54,260 nucleotides of DNA from Lysobacterales bacterium (GTDB lineage: Bacteria; Pseudomonadota; Gammaproteobacteria; Xanthomonadales; SZUA-36). Under the pieces are notes generated by a model. It saw nothing but the letters and a program-made list of their open reading frames with translations. It made no database searches and was not told the origin of the DNA. Positions 8,135-28,117 of the stretch are shown here, piece by piece. Both the position numbers and the translations under genes were made by a program. How positions within the stretch are numbered: position 1 is the first letter of the stretch; each line of letters starts with the position of its first letter. The stretch is from contig JABDPJ010000197.1 in the NCBI GenBank assembly GCA_013042835.1, positions 1-54,260 on the forward strand, in the 5' to 3' direction.

Positions 8135-8289
8135 GAATTACGGTAATCCTTGGTGCATTCGGGTGTTGTTTTTACCGGCAACCCGCCGAACATCGACGTC
8201 GCACGGTGAGGTTTTTAGTAATTATATATTCCTGCGAAACACGTCTATAATCATATATTATTTTTCCGGTCGCAGGCGAGATTAACAGC

Positions 8290-9549: not shown

Positions 9550-9594
9550 CAACTGTATATCCGGTGTACCGGCCGAACGTGGCTGGCCGGAGTC

Positions 9595-10434
9595 CTAGAT
9601 TGCTTCCACGGCCTTGCGACTGAGCGCGAGCAACTCCCTGGCATGCCTGTCCCGTTTCAGCATCCAACTGAACAGAACATCCACCACGTGCTGTTGCGAG
9701 GCACTGGAAATGATCTGCGGCACCTGGAAGCTCCCCTCGTGATTGACGCAAAACAGGCGTATGTCCGCCAGCGAACGGACCGGGTTGGCATTGTAATTGG
9801 TCAGGGAAATAACCGTCGTGCCGGCCTTCTTGGCCTGTCGGGTAATCTGCACCATTTTTGGCGATTGGCCGGCGTATGAGATGACAAAAACCGCATCCCC
9901 CGGACCCAGGGTGGCAATACTGGATAGCTGGATATAGGTGTCCACTTCCGCGATCACCGATTTACCGATCTGTATCAGGTTACTGGCGAAATTTCTCGCC
10001 ACCAGCGAACCGGCGCCCAGCGCAACAATCTGTATCCTGCCACTTTTCTCCAGGACTTTGACCGCGGCGAGCAGGCGCTCCTCGTCATTCAGTTCCATGG
10101 TAGTCAGCAAGGCTTCGTTCTTGTCATTGTAAAGCGATTGGGGAACGGACCCGGTCCCCGTTTCGGTCGCCTGACCGGTTTCATTGGGGCGTTCGTCGGT
10201 TTCATTCTTGACCACTGCCTCGTGGATGGCCAGCTTGAGGTCCGTGAAGCCGCGGTAATTCAGTTTCTGGCTGAACTTGATGATACTTGACTGGCTGACT
10301 CCCACCGCGGCGGCGAGGTTTTGCGATGAGTAGTCCCTGATCAATGCAGCATTACGGAGGATGAAATCCGCAATCTTCTTTTCGTTGGCTGACAACTCCT
10401 CCCGAACGGCCCGCATTTTCACAAGACAGGACAT
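9595..10434 (-). CDS. RpiR/MurR-family transcriptional regulator (HTH + SIS domain)
   Basis: 279 aa with an N-terminal HTH_6-like segment (LSANEKKIADFILRN ... SQSSIIKFSQKLNYRGFTDLK). The C-terminal SIS domain has IVALGAGSLVA. Confidence 0.85.
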   Translation of the reverse strand: MSCLVKMRAVREELSANEKKIADFILRNAALIRDYSSQNLAAAVGVSQSSIIKFSQKLNYRGFTDLKLAIHEAVVKNETDERPNETGQATETGTGSVPQSLYNDKNEALLTTMELNDEERLLAAVKVLEKSGRIQIVALGAGSLVARNFASNLIQIGKSVIAEVDTYIQLSSIATLGPGDAVFVISYAGQSPKMVQITRQAKKAGTTVISLTNYNANPVRSLADIRLFCVNHEGSFQVPQIISSASQQHVVDVLFSWMLKRDRHARELLALSRKAVEAI

Positions 10435-10513
10435 ATGACCCTATTCCGATTGACAATCCATATGCCCTATAAAATAACATAGCGAAATAATAATTCAGCT
10501 AAAAAATAATAAA

Positions 10514-12925: not shown

Positions 12926-13096
12926 AAACTGAAATCACTGGACATGGAGACCCCGGTTTTCCGTACAATATACGCCATAACAGCAGACCCTGGACTGTTC
13001 ATTATAGTGACAATCGTTCATCGTGTTGGCGAAACACCGGCCCAGCGGCCCAGCTCCCGCCTTCGCGCCTGTAACCGGTAGCAAAGAGAAAAAAAC

Positions 13097-14023
13097 ATGG
13101 CGGGTTCTTCAAAAAAGGCAATTTTCGCGGCCCTTATCGGCAACTCTCTGATAGCGGTAACCAAGTTCGCCGCAGCGGTCCACACCGGCAGCGCTGCGAT
13201 GATGAGTGAAGGCATTCACTCGCTTGTCGATTCGGGTAACCAGGTCCTGCTTTTGTGGGGAATCCGCTCCGCAAACCGGCCCGCCAGTCCCGAGTTCCCG
13301 TTCGGCCACGGCAAGGAAATTTATTTCTGGAGTTTCGTTGTTGCCATGCTGATTTTCGCGCTCGGCGGAACGGTTTCGCTGTACAAGGGCTGGCAGCACC
13401 TGGCGCACCCCACCACTATCGAAAACATTGCCATTAACTACGTGGTACTCGGTTTTGCGGTGATTTTTGAAACGGCGGCATTGTGGGTGGCGCTCAAGGA
13501 GTTCAACCTGAGCCGTGGGTCGCGCAGCATCTACAGGGCGATTGTGAAGGGCAAGGACCCCACGCTGTTCGTGGTCGTATTTGAAGATTCCGCAGCGCTG
13601 TTGGGACTCCTGGTGGCGCTGGCCGGGTTGATTATGTACCAACTCACCGGCAACCCGGTGTACGACGCCATCGCTTCGATGGGCATTGGCGTAGTCCTAA
13701 TCCTGACAGCCCTGATCCTGGCCATCGAGAGCAAAAGCCTGTTGATCGGCGAAAGTGCCGACCCGAAAATTGTCAACGGGATACGGGCTATTCTAGGCGG
13801 TGACGAAAGATTAATCACGGTTAACGAAGTGGCCACCTTGCACATGGGGCCGGATTTTATCGTTGTGACCATCTCGGTCGATTTTGTCGATGCATTGACC
13901 TCGGCCGAAATCGAGCAGGCCGTCACCCAGCTAACCAGGACAATCAAGGCGACTGACCTGCGCATCAAGCGTGTATTCATTGAGGCGGAACGCCAGTTAG
14001 ACCACCACAAGAAGGTCACATGA
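13097..14023 (+). CDS. Cation diffusion facilitator (CDF) family metal efflux transporter
   Basis: 308 aa. The N-terminus AIFAALIGNSLIAVTKFAAAVHTGSAAMMSEGIHSLVDSGNQ is typical of CDF TM1-TM2 with an HxxxD metal site. It has six TM segments plus a cytoplasmic C-terminal domain. Confidence 0.85.
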   Translation: MAGSSKKAIFAALIGNSLIAVTKFAAAVHTGSAAMMSEGIHSLVDSGNQVLLLWGIRSANRPASPEFPFGHGKEIYFWSFVVAMLIFALGGTVSLYKGWQHLAHPTTIENIAINYVVLGFAVIFETAALWVALKEFNLSRGSRSIYRAIVKGKDPTLFVVVFEDSAALLGLLVALAGLIMYQLTGNPVYDAIASMGIGVVLILTALILAIESKSLLIGESADPKIVNGIRAILGGDERLITVNEVATLHMGPDFIVVTISVDFVDALTSAEIEQAVTQLTRTIKATDLRIKRVFIEAERQLDHHKKVT

Positions 14024-14102
14024 CTGGAGTCCCTGGCGTCAGGGGCGGCAAACAAATCAAGCCATCATTTCTCGTTCCCGCGAACGGCTCGCGGTGGTAC
14101 TG

Positions 14103-15080
14103 TCAAACTGTCTGGTAGTAAAGATTTTGCGGATGATTCGCCTGCGCAAAGAAAAACCAGCGCTCCAGGACGAGGCCCGCATACTGGACCAGGAAAGCCA
14201 GTACCAGCAGAGCCGGCGAGGCCGCCACCAGGCCGCCTGCAAGCATTACCAGCGGAACGGGAAAGACCAGTAGCAGGAACAGCCACTTGATGTTTTTGTA
14301 CTTGCGCTGTGAAGCGCCGTGAAAATATTCACGCGTATTGAAGGAGCCGCCCATCGCGCCCTGCGCTTTCTGCTCAATTCTGCTGTGGCGGACGCCGATG
14401 GCTGTCTCCATCGTTGACTTTGGCTGCAGGCTGGCATTGCGCACCAGGCTGGCGGAACGGCCAATCAGGGCCAGCACGGTCAGGATAATGGCCCAGGCGC
14501 CGAAGAAGCCGGTCTGCGCCGACTCCTGGTAAGCGGCGAAACCCGTTACCAGCGTGAATCCCGAAGCCCATCCCAGCAGCGTGTAATTGATCACGGTCCA
14601 CGGCGTTGCCCACTCCTGCAACATCTTGATACAGGCATAGATCATGCCGGTGCACAGGAACAAGGCGAAACAAAGCACTGTCGCGACAGCGCCCGCGAGC
14701 AGTGACAGGTCGACCGGAAAAGAGTCTCCCAGTGTAAACAAAACTGGATTCCAGCCCGTGAAATGCAACAACCCCCAGGCAGCGACCGAGGCCATGAAAA
14801 CCGGCAGCACAATAACCTCACGCGACATCCATGACGTGCGCCAGCGAGCCGCTGAGCGCCAGGCGCGCTCCGGACGACCGAGGTGGAAAAATGAACTACC
14901 CAGACCCGCCACCAGCAATGCCAGCGAAATCAGGCTGCCCAGGACATAAAACTGGCCGGAACTTTCCGCCGGTAACAATTTGAAGACCGAATATAACTGC
15001 CCCGTGTAGAGCGCCAGGAACAGGCCCTGGCCGGCGCCGATAAGAGTGGTCAGAAAAATGATTGAAAATGCGGGATGCAT
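14103..15080 (-). CDS. DmsC-type membrane anchor subunit of a Mo-oxidoreductase (SoeC-like)
   Basis: 325 aa and polytopic (MHPAFSIIFLTTLIGAGQGLFLAL...). It is the last gene of a three-gene A-B-C cluster. Confidence 0.7.
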   Translation of the reverse strand: MHPAFSIIFLTTLIGAGQGLFLALYTGQLYSVFKLLPAESSGQFYVLGSLISLALLVAGLGSSFFHLGRPERAWRSAARWRTSWMSREVIVLPVFMASVAAWGLLHFTGWNPVLFTLGDSFPVDLSLLAGAVATVLCFALFLCTGMIYACIKMLQEWATPWTVINYTLLGWASGFTLVTGFAAYQESAQTGFFGAWAIILTVLALIGRSASLVRNASLQPKSTMETAIGVRHSRIEQKAQGAMGGSFNTREYFHGASQRKYKNIKWLFLLLVFPVPLVMLAGGLVAASPALLVLAFLVQYAGLVLERWFFFAQANHPQNLYYQTV

Positions 15081-15101
15081 GATGGTTTCCTTCGTATCCG
15101 T

Positions 15102-15833
15102 TTACCAGCTGGTCGTCTCGTCAAGTGTCGGTTCGCTATCGTCCGGCATGGGTTTCCGACGTTCTTTTCTGAGCGGATTGTCGGCGCGCTCCAGTTCATC
15201 TTCGTGGATGGTAATGCTGACTTTCTGCCGTGGCAGGTAATGATTGGCGGGCTTTGTACCCCACTCCGGCATGAGTTGGTAACCGCCGCTCTCCCTGATG
15301 GCGACAGCGACCTCGGAGTCCGGGTCATTGACGTCGCCAAACAGGCGCGCCTCGGCCGGGCAAGCAAGCACACAGGCCGGTTTACGTTCGCTTTCGGGCA
15401 GCGACTCGTCGTAAATCCGGTCGACGCACAGCGTGCACTTCTTCATGATCTTCTGATGCGCATCCAGTTCCCGCGCGCCATAGGGACAGGCCCAGGAACA
15501 GTAGTTGCAACCGATGCACTTGTCACTGTCGACCAGCACGATACCATCGGACTCGCGCTTGTAGCTGGCGCCGGTCGGACACACCGGTACGCAGGGCGGA
15601 TCTTCGCAATGCAGGCAGCTCTTCGGAAAATGAACGGTTTCGGTATCCGGAAATTGTCCGACCTCGAAGCTTTGCACGCGGTTGAAAAAGGTACCAACCG
15701 GGTCAGCACCGTAGGGATTCATATCAGACAGGTAGCCCGCCGTGCCGGAGGTGTTCCACTCCTTGCAGCTGGTGACGCAGGCATGACAGCCAACACAGAC
15801 ATTGAGATCGATGACCAGTGCCAGTTGAGTCAT
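15102..15833 (-). CDS. 4Fe-4S ferredoxin-type electron-transfer subunit (DmsB/PsrB family; SoeB-like)
   Basis: 243 aa with four Cys clusters: CVGCHACVTSC, CLHCEDPPCVPVC, CIGCNYCSWAC and CTLC...C. The start overlaps the stop of the catalytic subunit gene (ATGA). There is no Tat motif. Confidence 0.85.
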   Translation of the reverse strand: MTQLALVIDLNVCVGCHACVTSCKEWNTSGTAGYLSDMNPYGADPVGTFFNRVQSFEVGQFPDTETVHFPKSCLHCEDPPCVPVCPTGASYKRESDGIVLVDSDKCIGCNYCSWACPYGARELDAHQKIMKKCTLCVDRIYDESLPESERKPACVLACPAEARLFGDVNDPDSEVAVAIRESGGYQLMPEWGTKPANHYLPRQKVSITIHEDELERADNPLRKERRKPMPDDSEPTLDETTSW

Positions 15834-18745
15834 GACCTGCCTCCTTTGCCAGCGAAGTAGGTTAACCAGCGGCTGGGCTTCCTGTCTGTCATCTGCCCGG
15901 GAACGGAGGGCAAGGTATCGAACTGCGGTGAGCTGACCTTCTCCTCCCCCGCCCCTGCCGGGTAGATGCGCACCCGGACGTCAAACCAGCCGGCCTGGCC
16001 GGTAATCGGGTCGGAATTGGACAGGTGATCGCCGTCTTCTGATGGCGGCAACTCCTCGCTGATGAGGTGGTTGAGCAAAAAGCCTTTCTTAGCCTCGTTG
16101 GCATCGCCGTCCAGCGACCATGCGCCCGATGCTTTGCCGATAGCATTCCAGGTCCAGACCGTACCCGGTTCGACAGCTTCGGAATGCCGGCACAGGCAAC
16201 GAACTTTGCCGTGCATGGACTCGACCCACATCCAGCCACCGTCCTCGATGCCTGCTGCCTGCGCCGTCTTCGTATTCACGTACAGGAAGTTGTAGGTATG
16301 GATCTGCCGCAGCCAGGCGTTTTGCGAATCCCATGAGTGGTACATCGCCATGGGCCTCTGGGTCAACGCGTTGAGCGGGTATTTTTCCAGGTCGGATTGT
16401 AATGCCTCCAGGGGCTGCGAGTAGAACGGCAGCGGATCAAAGTGTCTTTCCACACGCTTGCGTAAATGATCGGGCGGCTGCCTGGTATCTGATTTGCCCT
16501 GGGCGGCGAGGCGAAACTTCTGCAAAACCTCGGAATAAATGTGAATGTTGATCGGTTCGGTATAACGCAGCAGCGCGTGGCGTTTCGCCCACTCGAGATA
16601 ACCCTGGTTCCAGTTGCGCATGTACTGGTAAGACCTCGGCAATCGATACTGAAACGCGCAGTTGTTCTTGGCGTACATCTCCCATTGTTTCGGGTTAGGC
16701 TCACCTTTCATGAACTTGTCGCCGTCCTTACCCCGCCATCCGGCCAGGAAGCCGATACCGGAACCCGGCGCCGTCTCGTAATTGACCACGAAGTCGGCGT
16801 AGTCACTGAACTTCGGACTGCCGTCGGCGTTGGTGAATGCAGGTAATTTCAGCCGTCCGGCCAATTCAATCAGCACGTCCTGGAACGGCCTGCACTGGCC
16901 GGTCGGTGGCAGCACCGGCACCCGCACGGAGTCGGCCGGACCTTCATAAGCGGAAATCGGCCGGTCCAGCATCGACATGACGTCGTGGCGTTCCAGGTAA
17001 GTGGTGTCGGGTAAAACCAGGTCCGCGAAGGCCACCGTTTCCGACTGAAAAGCGTCAGCGACGATAATGAACGGGATTTTGTATTCGCCGTCCTCTTCCT
17101 TGTCGACGAGCATTTCCCGCACGCCGGAGGTGTTCATACTGGAGTTCCAGGCCACGTTGGCCATGAACAGCATCAGCGTGTCAATTTTGTACGGGTCTCC
17201 CCGCCACGCATTGGTGATCGCGTTGTGCATCATGCCGTGCACCGACAGTGGAAACTCCCACGAGAACGCCTTGTCGAGGCGCACCGGGCTGCCGTCGTCA
17301 TTGACGAACAGGTCGTCCGGATCGGCCGGGAAACCCAGTGGCATCCCGTCCAGCGGCGTATTCGGCTGCACCGCCCGTGGATCGTTTGGCGGCTTGGCGC
17401 AGGGAGGTATCGGCCGCGGGAACGGCGCCTTGTGGCGAAAACCGCCGGGCCGGTCGATAGTGCCCAACAGGCTCATCAGGATCGACATGGCGCGGATGGT
17501 CTGGAAACCATTCGAGTGCGCCGCCAGGCCACGCATGGCATGAAACGCCACCGGGTTACCGGTGACGGTCTGGTGTTCATCACCCCAGGTATCGGTCCAG
17601 GCTATCGGCAGTTCAATTTTCTGATCACGCGCCGTAATTCCCATCTCGCGGGCCAGGCGAACGATCGTTTCCTCAGGTATGCCGGTGATTCCAGATGCCC
17701 ACTCGGCGGTATATTCGCTGACACGCTCGACCAGCAACTGGAAAGACGGTTTCACCGGCGTGCCATCCTCGAGTTCGTATTCACCCAAAAAGTAGGGGTC
17801 CACGCCCGGTGTATGGGTGGATATCGGAATATTCAGCTCACGGTCCCACCACAGTTTGTTCTGCGGATCAAAACAACCTTCCTCGTGCGGCACTTCAAAA
17901 CGCACGAACATGCCGTACTCGGATGAATTTTCATCCATGTTGACCAGTTCCGGCGCATTTGAGTACTGCGTCAGGAACTCCCGGTCATAGAGGCCCTGGC
18001 GAATGACCTCATTGATCAGGGCCAGGAACAGTGCGCCGTCGGTGCCCGGTTTGATCGGTACCCATTCGTCCGCTATGGCCGAGTAACCGGTGCGCACGGG
18101 GTTGATGGAAATGAATTTACCGCCCTGTCGTTTGAAATGGGCTATTTCCGTTTTGAGCGGGTTGGAATGGTGGTCCTCAGCCGTACCGATCATGACGAAC
18201 AGCTTGGCGCGCTCCAGGTCGGGCCCGCCAAATTCCCAGAACGAACCACCGATCGTATAAATCATTCCGGCCGCCATATTGACCGAGCAGAAACCACCGT
18301 GAGCCGCATAGTTGGGCGTACCGTATTGCTTGGCGAACAGGCCCGTCAGTGCCTGCATCTGATCGCGCCCGGTAAACAAGGCAAGCTTCTTCGGGTCACT
18401 GCCGCGCAAATGACCCATGCGCTCTTGCATGATTTCAAGCGCCTTGTCCCAGGAAATTTCTTCGAAATCACTCTCGCCCCGCTCACTGCCGGATTTGCGC
18501 ATTAACGGCCTGGTGATACGCGCCGGGCTGTACTGCTTCATGATGCCGCTCGAACCCTTTGCACAGATCACCCCCTTGTTGAGCGGATGGTCGGGGTTGC
18601 CCTGGATATAACGAACCTCACCGTCCCGCAGTGTCACGCGGATGCCGCAACGGCAGGCGCACATGTAACAGGTTGTGTTTTTGACCTCTACCTTGCTTTG
18701 TTCATCGAGTTTCTTTGACAGGGGGTCATGTATCGGATTGGACAT
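15830..18745 (-). CDS. Molybdopterin (bis-MGD) oxidoreductase catalytic subunit without Tat signal (SoeA-like sulfite dehydrogenase candidate)
   Basis: I trimmed ORF 15830..18832 to ATG 18745 (MSNPIHDPL...). It has an N-terminal FS0 cluster motif CYMCACRCG...ICAKG, is about 972 aa, and has no twin-arginine motif in either possible N-terminus. Confidence 0.75.
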   Translation of the reverse strand: MSNPIHDPLSKKLDEQSKVEVKNTTCYMCACRCGIRVTLRDGEVRYIQGNPDHPLNKGVICAKGSSGIMKQYSPARITRPLMRKSGSERGESDFEEISWDKALEIMQERMGHLRGSDPKKLALFTGRDQMQALTGLFAKQYGTPNYAAHGGFCSVNMAAGMIYTIGGSFWEFGGPDLERAKLFVMIGTAEDHHSNPLKTEIAHFKRQGGKFISINPVRTGYSAIADEWVPIKPGTDGALFLALINEVIRQGLYDREFLTQYSNAPELVNMDENSSEYGMFVRFEVPHEEGCFDPQNKLWWDRELNIPISTHTPGVDPYFLGEYELEDGTPVKPSFQLLVERVSEYTAEWASGITGIPEETIVRLAREMGITARDQKIELPIAWTDTWGDEHQTVTGNPVAFHAMRGLAAHSNGFQTIRAMSILMSLLGTIDRPGGFRHKAPFPRPIPPCAKPPNDPRAVQPNTPLDGMPLGFPADPDDLFVNDDGSPVRLDKAFSWEFPLSVHGMMHNAITNAWRGDPYKIDTLMLFMANVAWNSSMNTSGVREMLVDKEEDGEYKIPFIIVADAFQSETVAFADLVLPDTTYLERHDVMSMLDRPISAYEGPADSVRVPVLPPTGQCRPFQDVLIELAGRLKLPAFTNADGSPKFSDYADFVVNYETAPGSGIGFLAGWRGKDGDKFMKGEPNPKQWEMYAKNNCAFQYRLPRSYQYMRNWNQGYLEWAKRHALLRYTEPINIHIYSEVLQKFRLAAQGKSDTRQPPDHLRKRVERHFDPLPFYSQPLEALQSDLEKYPLNALTQRPMAMYHSWDSQNAWLRQIHTYNFLYVNTKTAQAAGIEDGGWMWVESMHGKVRCLCRHSEAVEPGTVWTWNAIGKASGAWSLDGDANEAKKGFLLNHLISEELPPSEDGDHLSNSDPITGQAGWFDVRVRIYPAGAGEEKVSSPQFDTLPSVPGQMTDRKPSRWLTYFAGKGGRS

Positions 18746-18919
18746 AAGAGTCTGCCTGTTGGGCCCGGTCCTGGCCGGAAAACGGCCATCTGCCGGACAG
18801 TTTTTCTGGTTGCTGCCGGGTTCGCAGCACACTGCTTCATAATAAACCAGATTATTACATATTAGATAATTTTAATTTACGTTAATTTTTCTTCGCTGCT
18901 AACACGCAACACGTCCTGA

Positions 18920-20404
18920 TCAATGAGCTTTTGTGGCCCGGTTATGCGACCAGATCCGCAGCGCGTTGAGTTGTTCTGACATGGTCTTCGACAATGGCAC
19001 GATGCGATAAATATTATGGATAAGATCATCATAGGTGATCTCGCGCCCGTCCGTGAACGCATCGATCCGCGCCGCCCTGACCATCTGCTCGATCTCGGCG
19101 GCGGTCCAGCCGTTCATGACCTTGGCGAGGTGGTTCAAATCGAACTCTTCCGGATCCCCGCCCTGGCCGAGTATGTGGATGCGCAGGATATCGATGCGTG
19201 CCGGCGCCTCTGGCAGGTCGACGAAGAACAACTGGTCGAACCTCCCTTTGCGGATCATTTCCGGCGGCAGGATCTCAATCCTGTTGGCCGTCGCAGCCAC
19301 GAAAACGTTGGCCGGCTTTTCCTGCATCCAGGTCAGGAACGATGAAAAAATGGTCATGTTGCCGCTGGTGGCGGAGTCGTTCAAAAAACCGAAACTGTTT
19401 TCAATTTCATCGATCCACAGCACGACCGGAGCGGCATTCTCGGCGGCACGGATAGCGCGCTCCCAGGCCACTTCGGGCGCGCCCCATCCACCTGACATGA
19501 TCTTGTTCATATCCAGGCGGATCAACGGCAGGCCCCAGACCGACGGTATGGTCTTGGCCGCCAGTGACTTGCCGCAACCACTGACGCCCATCATCAGGAT
19601 ACCGGCGGGCACATCTATCCGGGCGGCTTGCGCCTCCTTGGTGAAAAGTTTCTGCCGGGAAATCACCCAGCTTTTCAGTTTGCTGAGCCCGCCAATCTTG
19701 TCGATATCATATTTCTTGGTGATAACCTCGAGGCAGTTTTCCTTCATCAACAGCTGCGCTTTTGCGAGATTAATCTCAGCCAGTGCCGCGTCAACATCCA
19801 CTATCTTTTCACTGACCAGTTGGTGGAAAAGGTCACGGGTTTCGTTGGATGAAAGCCCTTGCGTTGCATACGAAACCCTGTCCAGCCACTCGTCGGAAAC
19901 CCGCTGTTCCTCGCCAAACCCGGAGTTCAGCGAGCCGAGCATACCTCTTAGTTCATCCGCGTCCGGCAAAGGCAGTTCAAGCAGGTATACCTCCTTGCTC
20001 AAGCCCGGGGGAATATTGATCGAAGGATGGGATACAACCATGCTGCCGGGCCGTACCGACAGGTGGTCATACACATCCCGCAACGCACGCACCAACGCCG
20101 GCCTCGATTCAAACAAAGCCGGCAGGTCTTTCATCAGGCAGATGGCGTCAACGCTCTCGCTGACGACAAATGACAGCGCCTCTACCGGATCCAGTAACTG
20201 CCGGTCTGCACCCGGGCCGCTGGTAAAACCGAGAGCCGCAGTCCATTGCCAAACCGGGCGGTCATCACCGAAGAGCTCTTGTGAAGCCCTGGCAAGCATT
20301 TGTTCGAGGCGTTCTTCCTCCCAGGTCACCACGTAAATGAGTGGTGATCCTGCAGCCAGTGTCCGGGAAAGTTGTTCCGAGGGTTTCACGCTTGATTCGT
20401 TCAT
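18920..20404 (-). CDS. Ycf46-like AAA+ ATPase
   Basis: Classical AAA module with Walker A GVSGCGKS, Walker B VLWIDEIE and second region of homology ATANRIEILPPEMIRKGRFD. The N-terminal ~250 aa begins ...SPLIYVVTWEEERLEQ, as in Ycf46-type proteins. Start 20404 (MNESSV...) places that motif at the usual distance from the N-terminus. The longer ORF start at 20482 would overlap the divergent gene's extension. Confidence 0.8.
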   Translation of the reverse strand: MNESSVKPSEQLSRTLAAGSPLIYVVTWEEERLEQMLARASQELFGDDRPVWQWTAALGFTSGPGADRQLLDPVEALSFVVSESVDAICLMKDLPALFESRPALVRALRDVYDHLSVRPGSMVVSHPSINIPPGLSKEVYLLELPLPDADELRGMLGSLNSGFGEEQRVSDEWLDRVSYATQGLSSNETRDLFHQLVSEKIVDVDAALAEINLAKAQLLMKENCLEVITKKYDIDKIGGLSKLKSWVISRQKLFTKEAQAARIDVPAGILMMGVSGCGKSLAAKTIPSVWGLPLIRLDMNKIMSGGWGAPEVAWERAIRAAENAAPVVLWIDEIENSFGFLNDSATSGNMTIFSSFLTWMQEKPANVFVAATANRIEILPPEMIRKGRFDQLFFVDLPEAPARIDILRIHILGQGGDPEEFDLNHLAKVMNGWTAAEIEQMVRAARIDAFTDGREITYDDLIHNIYRIVPLSKTMSEQLNALRIWSHNRATKAH

Positions 20405-20591
20405 TGCATTTATCCGGGCCGCATCCTTTAGCAATGCTAATAATAGCCAATTCGCAGGGTGTAGCCTCATGACCTGTGTCATCGCCGCGTCAAATGAAGC
20501 GCACGGAAATCCTCGCCGGCAATTGACTCAAGTCATTGCCGGGGGAAAAGCGTGTGGATATAGTTTCGCGCAACAAAAAAGAACGGGCGCC

Positions 20592-23500
20592 ATGAAATCC
20601 GTTGCAGCGCTGGCCAGCCAGGCAAGAGGTTCATCCACTGGTGCTCGAACCAGCCGCGCAAATATGCCCGTTAAACAGGAAAAGTCCCGCCTGATGGAAG
20701 GCTGGGTGATTGCCAATCACATTCTTGTTTCGTTTCATGTGGCATTTATCTCCTCCGTGTTAGCCATCCCGGACACTACGACAACCAGGGAAGCGGTGTT
20801 GCATTTCATCTTCCTGAGCCCGGAGACCATTGTTTCTGCTGTATTTACTTATGCGGTTTTCCATTCGGCCATTGCATTGCATGAGTTAGGGCACTTCCTG
20901 GAAGCTGCCAGATTGCGCGCACTCAATGATTCTATCCAGGCCAGGGTCGATTCCCGGCTTGCTGCGCCCCGCCCGGCTCGCTGGCGTTATCTTTTACTAT
21001 TGTTCCTGCAAATTCCCTATGGATTTGCTGTTGGCGTGAAGCGCGAGGGCCTGAATTACTATCCGGACGCACCGTATAATCTTGCCGTCGCTGCTGCCGG
21101 TCCGAGAGCGAGCCTCAAGGTCGCCCGCCTCGCGCTGCCGGTTGCCTTGGCCCTGCTGGCCATTGGCTTGCTGCATGATATTTCGTCAGCGCTCAACCTC
21201 GGCCGCTTGCTGCTCGGCCTGGGGATCGTGACTGGTCTTGATTTTTTGCTAGCGGACCCGGGTAAATACCGCGAATTCAAACGCCGGGAAAAGCTTGCAA
21301 GCACGGCGTCCTCCGCACTGCCGGTTGCTAATCGCTGGGCCGGCATGGCCGTCGACGCAAAATCCAGGATTGAACAACGAAGCATGCAGGAAGCGACCCA
21401 TCCACGCCTGGGTACCGTCAGGGCGCCGTGGCAGTTCCGCAATTGCGGCATGGGCGGCCGTCATACCGAAAAGGAATACCCGGAATCCAATATAAGCATG
21501 CAGGAGGCCATGTTCCTGATACTCGGTGCGGAGGATTCGCAGGAGGCGCAGGAAATGACCGTCCGCCTGCAGAACCGCCTCAAGGAAATCCTCGAGAAAG
21601 CGGAAGGTTGCCGGGTCATGGGAATCGGTCTTGAAGGTGGACTGGCGCCCTATGTCGATCGCGGGGACTACGAAATTCCTGAATTGCGCTTGTGGGCGAT
21701 GATGAAACAAACCATCGAAGAGTGCGGTTACCGGCCTGGTATCGATGTAGCCATCGCGCTCGACCCTGCCCTGTCCGAGCTGGAAATCGCCTACCGAGAG
21801 GAATTCGATCTGCCAGACAGCGTCGGTATGTACCTGTTCTGGAGGGACCATTCCAAAAAGGTCATGGACCGTGACGCCGTATTGGCAATCTACGAGCAGG
21901 CGATCAACGAACACGATATCCCGATTCTTTCGATCGAAGACGGCTTTTCAGAAGATGATCTTGAGGGTTGGAAAAAACTGCTGGCCAAACTAGGTGACCA
22001 TGTGCTGGTGATCGGTGATGACCTCGTAACCACAAACGACCGCACGATCGAGAAAGCGGCTGACGCCGGCCTGATCAACTCCGTTCTGGTTAAAGCCAAC
22101 CAGATAGGCTCCCTGTACGAAACTCTTCTGGCTGTGCTGGTGACCCTCGGTAAAGGCTTGAACCTGATCGTCTCACACCGCTCGAAAAGCCCCAACGACG
22201 ATATGGAGGCACACATTGCCCTGGCAACCAACGCACTGGGCCTGAAGGCCGGCGGAGGTGCGAATACCGAGCGCCTGGTCAAGTACCAGGCGGTAACCAC
22301 GCAGATGGAACGGGTCGTCGATGCCGGTATACAGGAACCAAACCTGCCGGGCTTCGCAACCATTGAAAACCTGAGGGCACGTGAAGAACCAACCAACGCC
22401 GGTATCCCGACGGTTGGAGTAGACGTCCAGTTGGCCTTGCCGGGTGAAAGCGCGGATACCGGTGTCCGCCTGAAATTTCATGGCGCGACCCCTTTGGGCA
22501 CCTCATCCGGAACCGGCGAGGCCGTGCACTTGGTCGACCGGGTATTCGAACGGGCGGAATACCTGGAAGCGGTTGAACAATATTCGCAATTACTCACGGA
22601 GATGGAGCCCGGGGTTTTCGCCTTCAAACCGGGTGTGACCCGGGAGCAGGCTGAGTCGGCCGGCGACGCAGCGTTGCTGGCCTTGTTCAAACGGACCCAA
22701 CGCTACGAGGGCAAGGGCTGCTTGAACGCTGTCGATCATGTGCATGAATTTGCCGCGCCGTGTTTCGAAGACAGGAACGTTGCCGATTGGGGCTTACTGG
22801 ACATCGACCGCACGCTGCTGAGGCTGGAGCTGGACACTGCTAAGCGACGTAAAAAGCTGCCTGCCACTGCTGACCATGAGGCCGAAATTCGCGTCATGCA
22901 GCGCAAACAGAACATTGGCATGAACGCTATCCTGTCGATCTCGCTTGCCATGGCGCGTGGCGTCGCACATGTTCGTGGACAGGAACTCTACGAGTTCTTG
23001 CGCGAGGAAATGCTGGTTATAATCGAACGTCTCGCCAGCGCGCATGACGTCGCAATCCAGGGCAGCCGCTTCGACGACTACCTTGCGGCCTTGCGCGAAG
23101 TAAACGCGAAACTGGAGCAACAACACATGCCACTTTACAAGTCTCTGCGCGAAGTAACCGGAGTGTACAAGCAGGACGGCAAGCAAAGTCGCGCGCCGGC
23201 TCCCTTCAGCGCCAACTGGCACGTCATTCCCAGCGAAGACGAGTCGTTCAGTTCACAGGAACAGGCAGAGATCAGCAGCCTGAACCATGCGCTGGTAAAA
23301 ACCTATCTCGTCGGGGATAGGCCGGAGGAGAACAGGTTCATACTGCGTCATTACCTGAAAACCATGCGCCTGCTGGGGCAACGTTACCGTATGTTTGAAA
23401 TAACCAACCACCGGGTTTTCAAATTTGAAGACAAGCTCATCGTTCCCTACGATGCACAAGGCAGGTTATCCATATACGTACTGACAAAAAAATCCCAGCG

Positions 23501-26500
23501 CCTGGTCAATGAACTGCGGGTGCCGCACGGCACACTGGTAACAGACGAGTTGATCGCAGATTTGGCCGGCATGCAGGGTGACGCGATTGATCTGGAACGG
23601 GAAATCTATCATTTGCATGTGGATGACATGCCCGCAATCCAGGTGTCACGCCTGCGTGACCTTGCCAGGTTGCTAAGGCGGCTGAACAACTGCGGCAGTC
23701 GCCATGAAGCGGTTTACCTGTTGCGTTTCCTGGTTGCCAGGCTTTGCAGCAGTTCCTATCGCGGCATGCCCGGCGCCAAGAATCTGAAACCGGAAATCAC
23801 CAGGGTGCGGCAGGAATTGGCCGAATTCATGAACGGGCCATTTGCGGAACGCCTGCGCCTGCCGACACGCATCCTCGTGAGAAGCATCTCGGGGCTGGTA
23901 TCCCAGCCAAAATTGATTGACGAAGTCTGGCAGGACACGATAGACCTTTCCGAGGTCATGGTACGGGGCAGCACCATCACGAATGAAATCCGCCGCAGCA
24001 CGCACCATGCAATGGGCAAACATACGCTGCGTCTGGCACGCGCCTACCTGCAATGGCTGCAGTTGGGTGAGGCTGAATTTCCGGATCCGGAACGGGAGAT
24101 TCCGGTTACTGCCGATGAAGCGGCGCGCGATAATCCGAAGGTGATAGCACTCGTAGAACGGATTGTCGCCGATCTTGAACAACTCATGGGTAGCTCGCAA
24201 ATTGCCCGGCGGTTGTTGGAGTGGCGTGACGCTTATGCGGACGAGTTGTTGCGTTGTGAATCAACAAATACCCTTGAAGAGGAACTCGAATCACTGACTA
24301 CCAAGGGCATTCGCACGCAAAATCAATGGGTTTATCAGCACAGACTGCGTAGCCTGACCAGCAAGTTGCGTGACGGCAACTGGTCAGACAAGGCCCGCAA
24401 ACCATTTGGTGCAAGCCTGAAATTCCTGCAGGAAAACTTGCCCGACGGCATTGACTTTCCCGCCGCTGAAATAGAAAGCAGGGCGCGCAAAGCCGTTGAC
24501 GCTTTCTGCGAACAGATCAGGCATGATCACCAGGACGCCCTGTTCAGCGCGCTTGACGGGCTGCTCGGCTACTACGAGGGCGGTCAGAATTTTAAGGCCT
24601 TCACCCGCAGTTGCGAACTGCGGCGCGAACTGGAAACGCTGGCCGGAGACGGCGTATTTGACACCCAGCGTTACCTCCTGCACCAGCTTGACTGCATTCT
24701 CGAGGAGTTGGGGTTTTTCGCTCTCAGGCACGTTGCATCGGATTATGCTGACAACGGCATGAAACTCGAAGAATGCCTGCAAATCGTACACCGCTGTGCC
24801 CGCAACCTGGACCGCGATGGACTGTACTCACGGGAACTGTGGGATTTATCGACCATGTTGATCAACCCTATGCGGACGCGTTCAGAACTGCTTGACGTAT
24901 TGGAGCAGATTCAACGTAACTACCACCGTCTCGTTCACCGCATCAGCAATGCCTACGAAGTGATGGCCGCGCACCTGGGCTATGGGACCGACGAGATGCG
25001 CGCGGTACTTGCCAACTTCCAGCGCACCATGCATGACCTGAATAGCCTCGTGCACTTTTCAGACCTGGCGCGCACCTACCTGTCCGAGAATGACCGTGAA
25101 ATAGAACGCTCGGAGGTGGGCGATCCCGGCACAGACCCATGGGATTTTGTGCATCTTTCGCACCGGGAAGACATCAACCGCCGGGTAGAGAGCAGAGATC
25201 CTGTCAGTTTGCAGGCGCGCTATGGCGGCAAGGGAAGCGGCCTGATCTATATATCCTATCTGGGCATTCCGACACGTGACGGCTTCATCATTCCCACCGT
25301 TTTACCCCGCCTGGATTTGCAAAACAGGGAAAAGGAGCGGTTTGAAAAAGAAGTGAGAAAGCATGTCCGCCTGCTGGAAAGCGATATACAACGCAATGAG
25401 GGAACCTCGCTGAAGCTCGGTGACCCCGAAGCACCGTTACTACTCGCCGTGCGCGGAGGTTCACCATTCTCAATGCCGGGAATGCTGGCAACCATGGTCT
25501 TTGTCGGCATGACCGATGCCGTGGCCGATGCCCTGGCCGTTGAGGATGAATGGTACGCCTGGGACGCCTACCGGCGCTTCCTCGTTTCGTTCTCCGCGGC
25601 AGTCTGGAACCTCGATATCGAAGCCCTTGACCTGGTGGAAAAAACCAAGCGCCAGCATGGCGTCGATCTCAAGACCGACCTGCCGGGCGCGGCCATGCGC
25701 GAGGTCGTTGAAGCGACCAAGCAGGCGATTCGAGACGCAGGACACAAAGATGAATTCGAGCATCTCACCGTGGATGCGGATCTGCAGTTACAGACTGCGT
25801 TACAGGCAGTACACAGTTCCTGGAACCGGGACCGTGCCCGCCAGTACCGTTCTATCAAGCACCTCAGCGAAGGCTGGCACACGGCAGCCACGGTGCAGCA
25901 AATGGCTTCCGGTAACCGGACCAACCGCCAGGAGCTAAAGCCGGGTATTGACGAAATGCGTATATCTCTTACCGGTGTTATTCCCAACACGCAGGTGCAG
26001 TCGACGGGATTCCGTGAGTTTACCGGTGATGTGAAATTCCAGGCCTGCGGCGATGACCTGGTGGGCGGCATGACCGCGGCCAAGTCTTTCGAGCCGGTGC
26101 AGAGACTGCATGTGCTGGCTCCCATGCTGGAACGGAAACTCAACCATGTCAGCGCCCGGTTGCGGCGCTTCCTGGGATCGGATGCGGAGATAGAATTCAC
26201 GGTTGACCGTGGTGTGCTCAGCGTATTGCAGGCGCGCAGCGCACAAATGGACCAGCAATTCCACAACCCACGGACGTTCAAAGACCCGGGGACTTCGAGC
26301 GGGCGCGGAATTGGCATCAGTGGCGGAGCCTTCCGCGGCCTGGTGGCATTCAACCAGGCCGATGTGACGCGCCTCGGCAAGGCCATGGATGAACAGTCAG
26401 AGGAAGTCGATGGCATATTGCTCGTGCTGGAGAACCCGGTACCCGATGAAATTCCGTTGATCCTTTCGGTCGGAGGCTTGCTGGCAGCGCGGGGTGGTTC

Positions 26501-26747
26501 GACATCACACGCCGCTGTCTGCGTTCACGGTATCGAAGATAAGCAATACAGCGCGGTGCTCGGTGTGCCGGAATTGCGGGTCGGCACGGCCAAGGCCACG
26601 CTGACAGGGGAAGACGGAGCAATCACACACACCCTGCATGCGGGCGACATAGTCTCCATTCACGGGCAGACCGGTGAAGTATTTGCCGGCTGGCGTGAGG
26701 TCATCAGCATTGAAGCTGATGCGCCAGCCGCCACGAAACATCCATAG
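20592..26747 (+). CDS. Giant multidomain protein: S2P/M50-like membrane metalloprotease region + circularly permuted enolase + ~700-aa unassigned region + PPDK/PEP-synthase-type ATP-grasp + phosphohistidine swivel domain
   Basis: Uninterrupted ORF 20337..26747 (2136 codons). The 5' end is uncertain, with candidate ATGs at 20592, 20664 and 20694. The first 85 codons overlap the divergent ATPase ORF extension and look non-coding. Domain motifs are listed in the sub-features below. Confidence 0.85.
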   Translation: MKSVAALASQARGSSTGARTSRANMPVKQEKSRLMEGWVIANHILVSFHVAFISSVLAIPDTTTTREAVLHFIFLSPETIVSAVFTYAVFHSAIALHELGHFLEAARLRALNDSIQARVDSRLAAPRPARWRYLLLLFLQIPYGFAVGVKREGLNYYPDAPYNLAVAAAGPRASLKVARLALPVALALLAIGLLHDISSALNLGRLLLGLGIVTGLDFLLADPGKYREFKRREKLASTASSALPVANRWAGMAVDAKSRIEQRSMQEATHPRLGTVRAPWQFRNCGMGGRHTEKEYPESNISMQEAMFLILGAEDSQEAQEMTVRLQNRLKEILEKAEGCRVMGIGLEGGLAPYVDRGDYEIPELRLWAMMKQTIEECGYRPGIDVAIALDPALSELEIAYREEFDLPDSVGMYLFWRDHSKKVMDRDAVLAIYEQAINEHDIPILSIEDGFSEDDLEGWKKLLAKLGDHVLVIGDDLVTTNDRTIEKAADAGLINSVLVKANQIGSLYETLLAVLVTLGKGLNLIVSHRSKSPNDDMEAHIALATNALGLKAGGGANTERLVKYQAVTTQMERVVDAGIQEPNLPGFATIENLRAREEPTNAGIPTVGVDVQLALPGESADTGVRLKFHGATPLGTSSGTGEAVHLVDRVFERAEYLEAVEQYSQLLTEMEPGVFAFKPGVTREQAESAGDAALLALFKRTQRYEGKGCLNAVDHVHEFAAPCFEDRNVADWGLLDIDRTLLRLELDTAKRRKKLPATADHEAEIRVMQRKQNIGMNAILSISLAMARGVAHVRGQELYEFLREEMLVIIERLASAHDVAIQGSRFDDYLAALREVNAKLEQQHMPLYKSLREVTGVYKQDGKQSRAPAPFSANWHVIPSEDESFSSQEQAEISSLNHALVKTYLVGDRPEENRFILRHYLKTMRLLGQRYRMFEITNHRVFKFEDKLIVPYDAQGRLSIYVLTKKSQRLVNELRVPHGTLVTDELIADLAGMQGDAIDLEREIYHLHVDDMPAIQVSRLRDLARLLRRLNNCGSRHEAVYLLRFLVARLCSSSYRGMPGAKNLKPEITRVRQELAEFMNGPFAERLRLPTRILVRSISGLVSQPKLIDEVWQDTIDLSEVMVRGSTITNEIRRSTHHAMGKHTLRLARAYLQWLQLGEAEFPDPEREIPVTADEAARDNPKVIALVERIVADLEQLMGSSQIARRLLEWRDAYADELLRCESTNTLEEELESLTTKGIRTQNQWVYQHRLRSLTSKLRDGNWSDKARKPFGASLKFLQENLPDGIDFPAAEIESRARKAVDAFCEQIRHDHQDALFSALDGLLGYYEGGQNFKAFTRSCELRRELETLAGDGVFDTQRYLLHQLDCILEELGFFALRHVASDYADNGMKLEECLQIVHRCARNLDRDGLYSRELWDLSTMLINPMRTRSELLDVLEQIQRNYHRLVHRISNAYEVMAAHLGYGTDEMRAVLANFQRTMHDLNSLVHFSDLARTYLSENDREIERSEVGDPGTDPWDFVHLSHREDINRRVESRDPVSLQARYGGKGSGLIYISYLGIPTRDGFIIPTVLPRLDLQNREKERFEKEVRKHVRLLESDIQRNEGTSLKLGDPEAPLLLAVRGGSPFSMPGMLATMVFVGMTDAVADALAVEDEWYAWDAYRRFLVSFSAAVWNLDIEALDLVEKTKRQHGVDLKTDLPGAAMREVVEATKQAIRDAGHKDEFEHLTVDADLQLQTALQAVHSSWNRDRARQYRSIKHLSEGWHTAATVQQMASGNRTNRQELKPGIDEMRISLTGVIPNTQVQSTGFREFTGDVKFQACGDDLVGGMTAAKSFEPVQRLHVLAPMLERKLNHVSARLRRFLGSDAEIEFTVDRGVLSVLQARSAQMDQQFHNPRTFKDPGTSSGRGIGISGGAFRGLVAFNQADVTRLGKAMDEQSEEVDGILLVLENPVPDEIPLILSVGGLLAARGGSTSHAAVCVHGIEDKQYSAVLGVPELRVGTAKATLTGEDGAITHTLHAGDIVSIHGQTGEVFAGWREVISIEADAPAATKHP
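20694..21266 (+). other. Domain: hydrophobic N-terminal region with site-2-protease (M50)-like motifs
   Basis: HELGH (nt 20880-20894) sits inside a hydrophobic stretch AVFTYAVFHSAIALHELGHFLEA. A downstream AVAAAGPRASL (AGP motif) follows. Further hydrophobic helices are present (LALPVALALLAIGLL, LLLGLGIVTGLDFLLAD), with a possible LD third-ligand motif. Confidence 0.55.
21414..22316 (+). other. Domain: enolase C-terminal TIM-barrel equivalent (placed first)
   Basis: These motifs align by eye to canonical enolase: PWQFRNCGMGGRH / MQEAMFLILGA, GLEGGLAP, AIALDPALSE, ILSIEDGFSEDDLEGW, VIGDDLVTTN, VLVKANQIGSL, IVSHRS and GLKAGG..TERLVKY. Confidence 0.8.
22374..23006 (+). other. Domain: enolase N-terminal domain equivalent (placed after the barrel)
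   Basis: GIPTVGVDV...GATPLGTSSGTGEAVHLVD corresponds to GNPTVEVE...VPSGASTG.HEA.E.RD. YEGKGCLNAVDHVHEFAAPCF corresponds to GKGV..AV.NVN..I.P. NIGMNAILSISLAMARGVAHVRGQELYEFL corresponds to LGANAILGVSLA..KAAA....PLY..L. Confidence 0.75.
25134..26261 (+). other. Domain: PPDK/PEP-synthase N-terminal nucleotide-binding (ATP-grasp) domain
   Basis: Motifs: YGGKGSGLIYISYLGIPTRDGFIIPT, LLLAVRGGSPFSMPGMLATMVFVGMTD, AWDAYRRFLVSF, ATVQQMASGN...LTGVIPN...FQACGDDLVGG and EIEFTVDRGVLSVLQARS. Confidence 0.8.
26289..26711 (+). other. Domain: PEP-utilising-enzyme mobile (swivel) domain with catalytic His
   Basis: GLLAARGGSTSHAAVCVHG, with the His codon CAC at 26508-26510, matches the GG.TSHAA.VAR phosphohistidine signature. 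The protein ends ~75 aa later, so no PEP/pyruvate-binding barrel follows. Confidence 0.8.
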
Positions 26748-26852: not shown

Positions 26853-27482
26853 ATGTCGGCAAACTTTTCTGCTAAACCGAATCAGGGTGAGATGAACCCG
26901 GTTGACAGGGCAGATTATCCACTGGCTAACAGTGAAAGAATCCAGTTGATGTTTGGTTCCTGCGCCATCGAGGTGCTCGAGAATGACCCGGGTATCCGGG
27001 TATCAAGCCTTTACAGCACACACGATGGCCTGAGGACAAACCGCACTTTTGCCGTGGTTGCCTACCCGGAAGTGATCGAGCACGCCTTCAGGGAAGAACA
27101 CGATGCAATCGTCAAGGGGCAGTCGATCGGTACGTTGTTCAAGGAACGGGGATGGGTGCTTGAAAAACACCACGAGTATTTTGGTGAGATTGACGTACCT
27201 GCTGACCTGTTCAGCACCGGTGCACAAGCCCTTGACCGAAAAAGCCGCTCGGCGATTCATGTTTACACGCTGGTGGTCAAAAAACAGGACTCTGAATTCA
27301 AGTACGCTTCTATCGCTGAAATTCATAACCCCGAATTCCTGCGACTCCATGACCTGGTAAAGATCTACGGTCCGGCATGTGCAGATGCCGGAGCTCACAG
27401 GGACAGGTTGGACGGTTTTCTGATGGTCGTCGAGTCGCGCATCAAGGCCCTTGGCGCCGTGAAGTTTCAAGCACAGCAATGA
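26853..27482 (+). CDS. Hypothetical protein (209 aa), no family recognised
   Basis: The ORF has GGAG ~12 nt upstream of ATG 26853. Its TGA overlaps the ATG of the following yceH-like gene (ATGA at 27479-27482), which argues for real translation and coupling. Confidence 0.6.
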   Translation: MSANFSAKPNQGEMNPVDRADYPLANSERIQLMFGSCAIEVLENDPGIRVSSLYSTHDGLRTNRTFAVVAYPEVIEHAFREEHDAIVKGQSIGTLFKERGWVLEKHHEYFGEIDVPADLFSTGAQALDRKSRSAIHVYTLVVKKQDSEFKYASIAEIHNPEFLRLHDLVKIYGPACADAGAHRDRLDGFLMVVESRIKALGAVKFQAQQ

Positions 27483-28117
27483 CCGGAGAATTTAACATCC
27501 TGACACCCGTGCAGGCACGAGTCGTCGCTTGCCTGATGGAAAAGAAAGAAAGCACGCCCGACCAATACCCGCTGACGCTGAATGCCCTGCGCAACGCCTG
27601 CAATCAGAAATCATCGCGATTCCCGGTGGTCAACTACAGCGAGGGCGAGGTCGGCCACGCGCTGCGCGAACTCGAAGCCATGGACCTGGTGCGCGAGCAC
27701 TGGGGCGCTCGTGTGCCCAAATACGAGCACCTGGCCAACAAGGCCCTGAACCTCTACAGCCAGGGTATCGCCCTGGTATGCACCTTGATGCTCCGCGGCC
27801 CGCAAACCCTGGGCGAGTTGAGGAATCACTCGCAACGCCTGTTCGAGTTTGATGACATCGATGACGTGCAATTTGCCATCAACCACCTGGTCGAACGCGA
27901 GCCACCACTGGCCACCGCCCTGCCCCGTCAACCCGGCCAGAAAGAAGGTCGCTACGCACACCTGTTGTGTGGCGAGCCCGACATTCCAGATCCGGAGACC
28001 GCGACTGTCAGCGCTCCATCCACGGGCGGATTGGCTGCCAGGGTCAGCGAACTGGAAACCGAGCTGGAAGTCATCAAGGAACGTCTCGAAGCCATCGAAA
28101 AACAACGGGGTGACTGA
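27479..28117 (+). CDS. yceH: YceH-family (DUF480) winged-helix protein
   Basis: I trimmed ORF 27377..28117 to ATG 27479. The N-terminus LTPVQARVVACLMEKKESTPDQYPLTLNALRNACNQKSSR is the characteristic DUF480 opening. A C-terminal coiled coil is present (LETELEVIKERLEAIE). Confidence 0.8.
   Translation: MTGEFNILTPVQARVVACLMEKKESTPDQYPLTLNALRNACNQKSSRFPVVNYSEGEVGHALRELEAMDLVREHWGARVPKYEHLANKALNLYSQGIALVCTLMLRGPQTLGELRNHSQRLFEFDDIDDVQFAINHLVEREPPLATALPRQPGQKEGRYAHLLCGEPDIPDPETATVSAPSTGGLAARVSELETELEVIKERLEAIEKQRGD

Follow-up and report, generated by a model that had tools for sequence, protein, structure and literature searches.

The 54,260-nucleotide contig JABDPJ010000197.1 of a Lysobacterales bacterium (assembly GCA_013042835.1; this whole stretch is called the window) carries on its forward strand, at 20592-26747, a gene for a protein of 2051 residues. 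As judged from its sequence and its relatives, this gene is largely shown to be chromosomal and stand-alone and to encode a multi-enzyme of the inner membrane in which an M50-like anchor, a permuted enolase, a hinge and a dikinase unit follow each other. Possibly, the family protein is a membrane-anchored phosphotransfer enzyme acting on phosphoenolpyruvate (PEP) or 2-phosphoglycerate (2-PG), with a domain peculiar to the family (orphan domain) in place of the PEP barrel of pyruvate phosphate dikinase (PPDK). We give this reading a probability of about 0.38. A first-pass annotation made from the bare letters had proposed four modules in one frame. Profile searches confirmed Enolase_C, Enolase_N, PPDK_N and PEP-utilizers; the M50-like part was supported by motifs and sub-threshold matches. 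Residue numbers (aa) refer throughout to the protein starting at the ATG at 20592. AlphaFold 2 (AF2) models were computed separately for the N-half and the C-half. The features are:

20592..26747, plus strand: whole family gene, 2051 codons and TAG stop (open reading frame (ORF) list; start as in public records)
20679..21263, plus strand: M50/site-2 protease (S2P)-like membrane domain, aa 30-224 (hydropathy, motifs, sub-threshold Pfam M50)
20880-20894, plus strand: HELGH, aa 97-101, M50-like motif
21090-21104, plus strand: AAAGP, aa 167-171, M50-like motif
21237-21257, plus strand: LDFLLAD (LD217F..D222), M50-like motif
21264..21377, plus strand: helical connector from the last membrane helix to the enolase barrel, aa 225-262 (AF2 helices 225-241 and 249-262)
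21378..22331, plus strand: enolase TIM-barrel domain, aa 263-580 (Enolase_C, PDB enolases, Foldseek, invariant residues)
22332..23165, plus strand: enolase N-terminal capping domain, here following the barrel, aa 581-858 (Enolase_N; S638 in the metal loop PLGTSSGTGEA)
23166..23252, plus strand: variable hinge, aa 859-887 (21% identity, low model confidence, insert mapping, split loci)
23253..25160, plus strand: family-specific orphan domain, aa 888-1523 (AF2, no library match, invariant polar cluster)
23991-24008, plus strand: RRSTHH, within the invariant polar cluster of the orphan domain
25161..26261, plus strand: PPDK-type nucleotide-binding (ATP-grasp) domain, aa 1524-1890 (PPDK_N, TIGR01828, 1kbl alignment, Foldseek)
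26262..26711, plus strand: linker and C-terminal phosphohistidine swivel domain, aa 1891-2040, swivel at about 1926-2040 (PEP-utilizers, 1kbl)
26508-26510, plus strand: codon of His1973 in the motif GGSTSHAAV, predicted catalytic phosphohistidine

The barrel was matched by Enolase_C with 167.7 bits (cut-off 21.5; E 4.8e-49) and aligned to enolase residues 153-406, with E 5e-41 for PDB enolases. Enolase_N matched C-terminal to the barrel with 50 bits (cut-off 35), and the capping segment, which has two inserts, aligned to enolase residues 2-136. Thus, with residues 153-406 followed by 2-136, the enolase is complete and genuinely circularly permuted, as had been proposed from the letters. Foldseek with the N-half model retrieved enolases at E 2e-13. 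The catalytic set of the barrel comprises H291, Q304, E305, E348, D391, E449, D476, K501, H529, R530, S531 and K552. These twelve residues and S638 were invariant or nearly so when 106 full-length family members were aligned with MAFFT; all statements on invariance below refer to this set. Their counterparts in yeast enolase are presumably H159, Q167, E168, E211, D246, E295, D320, K345, H373, R374, S375, K396 and S39, a correspondence drawn from motifs and supported by the PDB-enolase alignments. The equivalog model TIGR01060 reached 214 bits (cut-off 300) and covered profile positions 140-404 only. The active-site loop from H291 to E305 (aa 288-305, window 21453-21506, equivalent to His159-Glu168) is five residues longer than in canonical enolases and almost invariant: RNCGMGGRHTEKEYPESNISMQE. 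Three active-site loops of the enolase, this one included, had a predicted local distance difference test (pLDDT) score below 50 in the N-half model.

At the other end of the protein PPDK_N matched with 46 bits (cut-off 27) and PEP-utilizers with 24.9 bits (cut-off 23.1). The PPDK model TIGR01828 reached 233 bits, below its 843-bit equivalog cut-off and at positions 16-339 only; the PEP synthase model gave 26-31 bits compared with these 233. The C-terminal 520 residues aligned to residues 13-339 and 364-510 of PPDK 1kbl, and GGSTSH1973AAV of the family protein stands opposite GGMTSH455AAV. The AF2 model of aa 852-2051 (pLDDT 83, predicted template modelling score 0.82) superposed on 1kbl over 569 columns (Foldseek E 3.8e-21), and Foldseek matched 2fm4 for the His swivel domain. 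The ATP-site residues K1547, R1621, E1866, E1868, Q1880 and R1882 were invariant or nearly so, as were T1971, S1972 and H1973. In the Pfam scan PEP-utilizers_C, i.e. the PEP/pyruvate barrel, was not matched; the protein stops 78 residues after H1973. The early description of an ATP-grasp plus swivel domain of the PPDK type which ends ahead of the PEP/pyruvate barrel therefore holds.

Between enolase and ATP-grasp the first-pass annotation had left about 700 residues without a recognisable motif. This region proved to be a domain of 640 residues which matched nothing in Pfam, NCBIfam or a PDB sequence-profile search, and the AlphaFold and Foldseek comparison of the segment, suggested at the time, retrieved no credible PDB fold. 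In the predicted fold a long array of helices comes after a small beta unit (AF2, pLDDT about 85-95). A phmmer search with the orphan domain against 1.84 billion representatives gave 77 matches, all of them members of the same family. Its length was 639-646 residues in all 42 sequences examined, and 38 polar residues were invariant. Among these is a cluster formed by R1097, D1110, D1115, E1121, S1127, N1131, E1132, R1134, R1135, H1138 and H1139. To judge by its conservation, the orphan domain is more likely to hold a site for binding or catalysis than to act as a spacer.

Hydropathy placed four hydrophobic helices in the N-terminal domain at about residues 38-60, 68-100, 173-200 and 203-224, with HELGH at the end of the second one. 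The order of motifs is HELGH, an I-P-Y-G loop, AAAGP and L-D217-F; in Escherichia coli RseP it is HEFGH, IPLGG, AAGP and LDGG. All four motifs were invariant. The last of them reads LDF, not LDG, and a role of D217 as zinc ligand is putative. Pfam Peptidase_M50 (PF02163) gave 12.6-16.6 bits for the window protein at a cut-off of 27.2. It was matched by 19 of 20 members (best E 1.2e-5), in every case under this cut-off, and was the sole Pfam family matched consistently by the membrane domain. The RseP model TIGR00054 matched weakly in 8 of the 20 members (best E 0.049), and hhalign against RseP aligned HExxH and the PxG loop at a probability of 17.8%. A profile search of PDB sequences with the membrane domain returned nothing; Foldseek with the whole N-half model found only enolases in the PDB and nothing in the viral library. 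The helices expected of an S2P core are present in the N-half model (pLDDT 60-90). Arg/Lys-rich flanks suggest that both N- and C-terminus of this domain face the cytoplasm. The claim of an S2P-like protease domain thus stands in part: the motifs are invariant and located in transmembrane helices, yet no profile matched above a curated threshold. Probably, this is a divergent S2P-like domain and not an established M50 member. The connector which leads to the barrel is 36% identical to that of distant members.

A fusion of this kind could be produced by a chimeric assembly or by a hidden frameshift which joins ordinary separate genes. In fact, some relatives appear truncated or split in long-read assemblies (L011, L091). 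Against such an artefact, full-length homologues number more than 100 and come from many assemblers and four data sources independent of each other; relatives are encoded in 262 species genomes, module lengths are conserved, and canonical enolases are never permuted in this manner. An artefact is vanishingly improbable. As far as comparison of assemblies can tell, the ORF at 20592-26747 is real and an assembly chimera is refuted for practical purposes; the single frame of more than 6 kb first described is genuine. The open frame runs uninterrupted from 20337 to 26747 on the plus strand (2136 codons by ORF list and translation). Given how often stop codons are expected at 56% G+C, chance cannot explain an open stretch of over 2000 codons. 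The first 146 nucleotides of the longer frame overlap the divergent AAA-ATPase ORF (18920-20482, minus strand), and residues ahead of Met86 of the 2136-codon frame are not conserved in relatives. For both reasons the start at 20337 was rejected in favor of the ATG at 20592. This is also the start in the public record of the same contig (P0202) and, at the equivalent position, of a 99.8% identical protein from a metagenome-assembled genome (MAG; P0001, MBT8071304.1). A weak sigma-70-like site lies upstream at 20536-20564.

The search for full-length relatives, which had been advised from the outset, yielded 322 homologues from NCBI, JGI, ENA and Logan assemblies, of which more than 100 were full length at 51-85% identity. 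Relatives are encoded in 262 GTDB species genomes, and the best 80 of these 262 are all MAGs. The family extends over more than 10 phyla of sediment, groundwater and bioreactor bacteria, and the listed hosts are uncultivated. They belong to Lysobacterales/Xanthomonadales, Chromatiales, Planctomycetota, Gemmatimonadota, Myxococcota and Desulfobacterota, further to Acidobacteriota (Aminicenantes, Thermoanaerobaculia, Sulfomarinibacteraceae), Dehalococcoidia, Thermoleophilia, Eisenbacteria and Krumholzibacteria. Conservation of the modules was compared between the window protein and 26 members less than 60% identical to it overall. Identities were 78% for the enolase barrel, 64% for the membrane domain, 57% for the capping domain, 54% for the ATP-grasp, 50% for the His domain, 43% for the orphan domain and 21% for the hinge. 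We take the family barrel to be more conserved across phyla than ordinary enolases, and this degree of conservation suggests that a large part of its surface is under constraint.

Neither the whole protein nor its middle domain has a model in NCBIfam 2026 or Pfam 2025. Database entries carry only the names 'hypothetical', 'enolase' or 'PEP/pyruvate-binding domain-containing protein'. PADLOC defence models did not match the 2051-residue protein, no relatives were found in IMG/VR viral contigs, and the orphan domain had no match in PLSDB plasmids. A defence or mobile-element origin was rejected on these grounds. The lack of a whole-protein model and of a PADLOC match, together with the uninformative names, is in line with the initial impression of an architecture that matches no described system. 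We found no curated family, structure or paper; the literature search was largely incomplete and a prior description is possible.

The hinge divides the protein into halves which may occur apart. Residues 863-884 had pLDDT values below 50, and among relatives the hinge is the site of gene splits, of Pro/Ala-rich linkers and of a domain insertion; its length varies from 20 to more than 300 residues. In a clade of 2325-residue proteins (P0104, P0107, P0112; loci L005/L006, gene 8001-14978) an HD phosphohydrolase domain of about 275 residues is inserted here (PF01966, 24.5 bits, cut-off 22). In locus L090 (5294-11555) an N-half of 869 residues ends in a stop codon and a C-half of 1184 residues is encoded by the adjacent gene 98 bp apart. 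In L091 (3051-9219) the adjacent halves are in different frames, possibly by a long-read sequencing frameshift; the N-half was missed by the gene caller and a spurious antisense ORF of 799 residues was annotated over it. Eight clusters with less than 50% mutual identity consist of proteins of about 1160-1198 residues that begin with the orphan domain. One of the stand-alone C-halves has no N-half nearby (L095, 912-7777), and another is from a MAG which also has a full-length gene of 2145 residues (L094, 1405-8817; L080). In a neighbour-joining tree the stand-alone forms were scattered and did not form a single clade; therefore, splitting occurred several times. Since the C-half is found as a separate gene, either adjacent or unlinked, it is an autonomous unit. 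We also noted, each in a single instance, that the stand-alone C-half of L094 lies 3' of MlaE/MlaF/MlaD-like ABC transporter genes on the same strand, and that a glycerate-kinase-family gene (DUF4147/MOFRL) is located about 2 kb downstream of that in L095.

How might such a protein work? PPDK swivel chemistry is textbook three-site catalysis, and the known reactions of enolase and PPDK share a single compound, PEP. We propose that the ATP-grasp site would phosphorylate His1973 from ATP with release of AMP, possibly reversibly as in PPDK. The His domain, tethered on one side, would then swing to a third site in place of the missing PEP/pyruvate barrel, and the orphan domain would supply this site via its invariant Arg/His/Asp cluster. 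This assignment is drawn by analogy with rifampin phosphotransferase, in which a terminal His domain serves an unrelated substrate-binding domain, and from the recurrence of the C-half as a separate, sometimes unlinked gene, which makes the orphan domain part of an autonomous dikinase unit. The compound handled would be from the PEP/pyruvate/2-PG pool, interconverted by the tethered enolase. PEP, pyruvate or 2-PG are suggested because ATP-grasp and His domain are closest to PPDK and because a competent enolase is part of the dominant form. The whole protein may thus couple the interconversion of 2-PG and PEP to His-mediated phosphoryl transfer and to ATP/AMP at the membrane, and the M50-like domain could be a protease, a conduit or a mere anchor. 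The invariance of enolase, ATP-site and phosphohistidine residues and of the M50 motifs in the 106 proteins predicts catalytic competence. The cross-phylum identities of barrel (78%) and membrane domain (64%), set against 43% for the orphan domain, point to a tightly integrated N-half and speak for this proposal.

Several points weigh against a membrane-bound PEP/2-PG phosphotransferase. The orphan domain resembles no known substrate-binding fold and its part as third site is an analogy; counterparts of the PPDK residues for pyruvate enolisation were not identified in the family protein. A metabolic converter would leave the conservation of the zinc-site motifs and of the first membrane helix unexplained. 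The HD-phosphohydrolase inserts of one clade hint at a phosphorylated product other than PEP, and the stand-alone C-half indicates a dikinase unit able to work without a fused enolase.

The third site might instead be the enolase barrel itself, so that His1973 would exchange its phosphoryl group directly with PEP or enolpyruvate at the two-metal site; the orphan domain would be a scaffold which places the barrel where the PEP barrel sits in PPDK. By established enzymology an enolase site binds PEP and stabilizes enolate intermediates. The barrel is highly conserved across phyla, its loop H291-E305 carries an invariant five-residue insertion, and the three low-confidence active-site loops are compatible with a docking partner left out of the N-half model. 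Further, the permutation sets the barrel beside the membrane domain and the capping domain beside the C-half. However, an obligatory contact is hard to reconcile with a C-half that is separate or unlinked and with a hinge of 20 to more than 300 residues. Known enolases bury the phosphate beneath their capping loops, and we know of no enolase described to carry out phosphoryl transfer. We consider a phosphotransfer role of the barrel unlikely. An equally doubtful case is that of a dikinase which phosphorylates a compound with no relation to PEP; the orphan domain would bind this substrate, which might be a small molecule, a protein or the head group of a lipid. It would follow the logic of rifampin phosphotransferase or phenylphosphate synthase and use enolase and membrane domains for localisation, supply or regulation. 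The combination of substrate domain, ATP-grasp and terminal swivel His does exist as an autonomous protein of about 1170 residues, and the orphan domain matches no PEP-binding fold. The HD phosphohydrolase at the hinge of one clade could reverse a phosphorylation, and one stand-alone copy follows the Mla-like lipid ABC transporter operon. On the other hand, the match to PPDK (233 bits) compared with that to PEP synthase (26-31 bits) and the weak fold matches to rifampin phosphotransferase disagree with this, and the covalent fusion of the dominant form to an enolase with a full catalytic set argues for PEP or 2-PG.

SpoIVFB is gated by an ATP-binding CBS domain. Comparably, the M50-like domain could be a regulated intramembrane protease which cleaves a membrane substrate and is gated by PEP/2-PG/ATP or by phosphorylation of His1973. 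In favor of such a protease are the invariant HExxH, PxG loop, AAGP and LD motifs and M50 as the only consistent Pfam match; cytoplasmic nucleotide-sensing domains are established for group III S2Ps, and Ser/Thr kinases, a SpoIIE phosphatase or an ECF sigma/anti-sigma pair are near the gene in some loci. Yet a sensor would not require all catalytic residues of two enzymes to be invariant across phyla, and the 78% identity of the barrel fits poorly with such a role. In addition, the M50 assignment is under the curated threshold, the C-half also exists without the membrane domain, and no anti-sigma, sigma or substrate-like neighbour was conserved in 89 loci. We rate a gated protease as rather improbable. 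Finally, a categorically new membrane phosphotransfer machine is conceivable but unlikely: the swivel His, charged by ATP or by enolase-made PEP, would drive or gate an S2P-like process. The latter could be phosphorylation-controlled intramembrane proteolysis or the modification or translocation of a membrane-associated substrate, and the acceptor site would be a previously unseen catalytic domain of 640 residues. Neither the favored reading nor its rivals explain the strong conservation of the membrane domain.

The genomic surroundings were analysed by clustering the ORFs of the 89 loci. No neighbour was conserved in more than 15 of them and none across phyla. Recurring neighbours (molybdopterin oxidoreductase, AMP-binding enzyme, DUF480, AAA, Ser/Thr kinases) were rejected as core partners; they are lineage-restricted or belong to abundant families. 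Rfam families including riboswitches were absent from the window and four other loci. Judged by gene order, the family gene is self-contained. In the window it is located between a divergent AAA ATPase and a 209-residue ORF, followed by DUF480. The AAA gene is:

18920..20482, minus strand: classic AAA ATPase, 520 residues (Pfam AAA; partial NCBIfam matches of the Cdc48/PAN/FtsH type)

It consists of AAA and lid domains with an N-terminal region of about 280 residues of unknown type and is transcribed divergently from the family gene. As it is adjacent to the family gene in only 7 of the 89 loci, all Lysobacterales-like, gene order identifies it as a lineage-specific neighbour, not a core component. 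An identity as IetA was dismissed: the similarity is generic for AAA proteins (PADLOC 53.6 bits, cut-off 510). The 209-residue ORF directly downstream (26853-27482, plus strand) has no match in Pfam, NCBIfam or PADLOC, overlaps the listed start of the DUF480 ORF (27377-28117), and has kept its place downstream of the family gene in the window and three other gammaproteobacterial loci (L015, L025, L029). Upstream, a DmsABC-like operon (14103-18832, minus strand) encodes a DmsC anchor (14103-15080), a 4Fe-4S subunit (15102-15833) and a molybdopterin subunit of 1000 residues (15830-18832). About 15 of the 89 loci, by estimate from two or three lineages, have a molybdopterin oxidoreductase of one of two size classes upstream of the family gene. 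An RpiR/MurR-type regulator (9595-10434, minus strand) lies beside a purple-acid-phosphatase-like metallophosphoesterase of 803 residues (10514-12925, minus strand), and this pair is syntenic with the family gene in the gammaproteobacterial locus L004. Very large alpha-2-macroglobulin-like genes are adjacent to the family gene or near it in L001 (1832-9895, Planctomycetota), L002 (16275-24439), L003 and L008; in the last three, which are metagenome loci, a SpoIIE/PP2C phosphatase gene is in between. At least three more loci (L054, L057, L062) encode Ser/Thr kinases with TPR repeats within a few kb of the family gene.

Each recognisable domain is, by its profile matches, from a known superfamily, yet the protein does not pass the equivalog tests for enolase, PPDK and RseP. 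It is devoid of the third domain that defines PPDK and has a domain without relatives outside the family; we found no described function. Few enzymes are as conserved or as well studied as enolase. A permuted, membrane-tethered enolase with intact catalytic residues was absent from the libraries queried, and here it is the most conserved module of the protein. With either the orphan domain or the enolase barrel in place of the third PPDK site, the protein would widen the known range of His-swivel dikinases. An M50-like domain that is active would be, to our knowledge, the first S2P-type domain on central-metabolic enzymes. Should the protein indeed be a new machine, a single polypeptide would link lower glycolysis directly to an event at the membrane. 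The distribution over at least 262 species-level genomes indicates a widespread and strongly selected function, and the naturally split and stand-alone forms are ready soluble constructs for biochemistry.

Compared with the site-2 proteases RseP and SpoIVFB, the family protein shares HExxH, the P-x-G loop, AAGP and LD in the same order and within membrane helices; SpoIVFB likewise has a cytoplasmic nucleotide-binding module after its core. It differs in that it scores below the Pfam and NCBIfam thresholds, has LDF in place of LDG, lacks a PDZ or CBS domain, and carries about 1800 residues of enzymes on a membrane domain whose first helix is unusually conserved and polar. With enolase (EC 4.2.1.11) it has both domains in common and all residues for metal ligation, acid/base catalysis and binding of phosphate and carboxylate; the barrel is 29-34% identical to bacterial enolases. 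Unlike these, it is permuted with the barrel ahead of the capping domain, is fused to a membrane domain, and carries extra helices besides the five residues added to the H159-E168 loop and the two capping-domain inserts. The dikinase part, ATP-grasp and swivel domain, is 26% identical over the 569 aligned columns to PPDK of Clostridium symbiosum (EC 2.7.9.1; 1kbl/1dik), and the equivalents of its K22, R92, E323, Q335, R337 and T453-S-H455 are invariant in the family. In contrast to PPDK, the PEP/pyruvate TIM barrel is missing, the His domain sits at the C-terminus with a tether on just one side, and about 1520 residues of other modules precede the dikinase part. Rifampin phosphotransferase (5hv6/5fbs) was matched weakly by Foldseek and in the ATP-grasp only (5hv6 E 6e-4; 5hv3 and 5fbs E above 0.01, up to 7e-2). 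In the family C-half, unlike there, the substrate domain comes first, and the two substrate domains show no similarity. The common logic is an ATP-grasp, a substrate domain which is not a PEP barrel and a terminal swivel His, and phenylphosphate synthase, another dikinase without a PEP barrel, works by the same logic.

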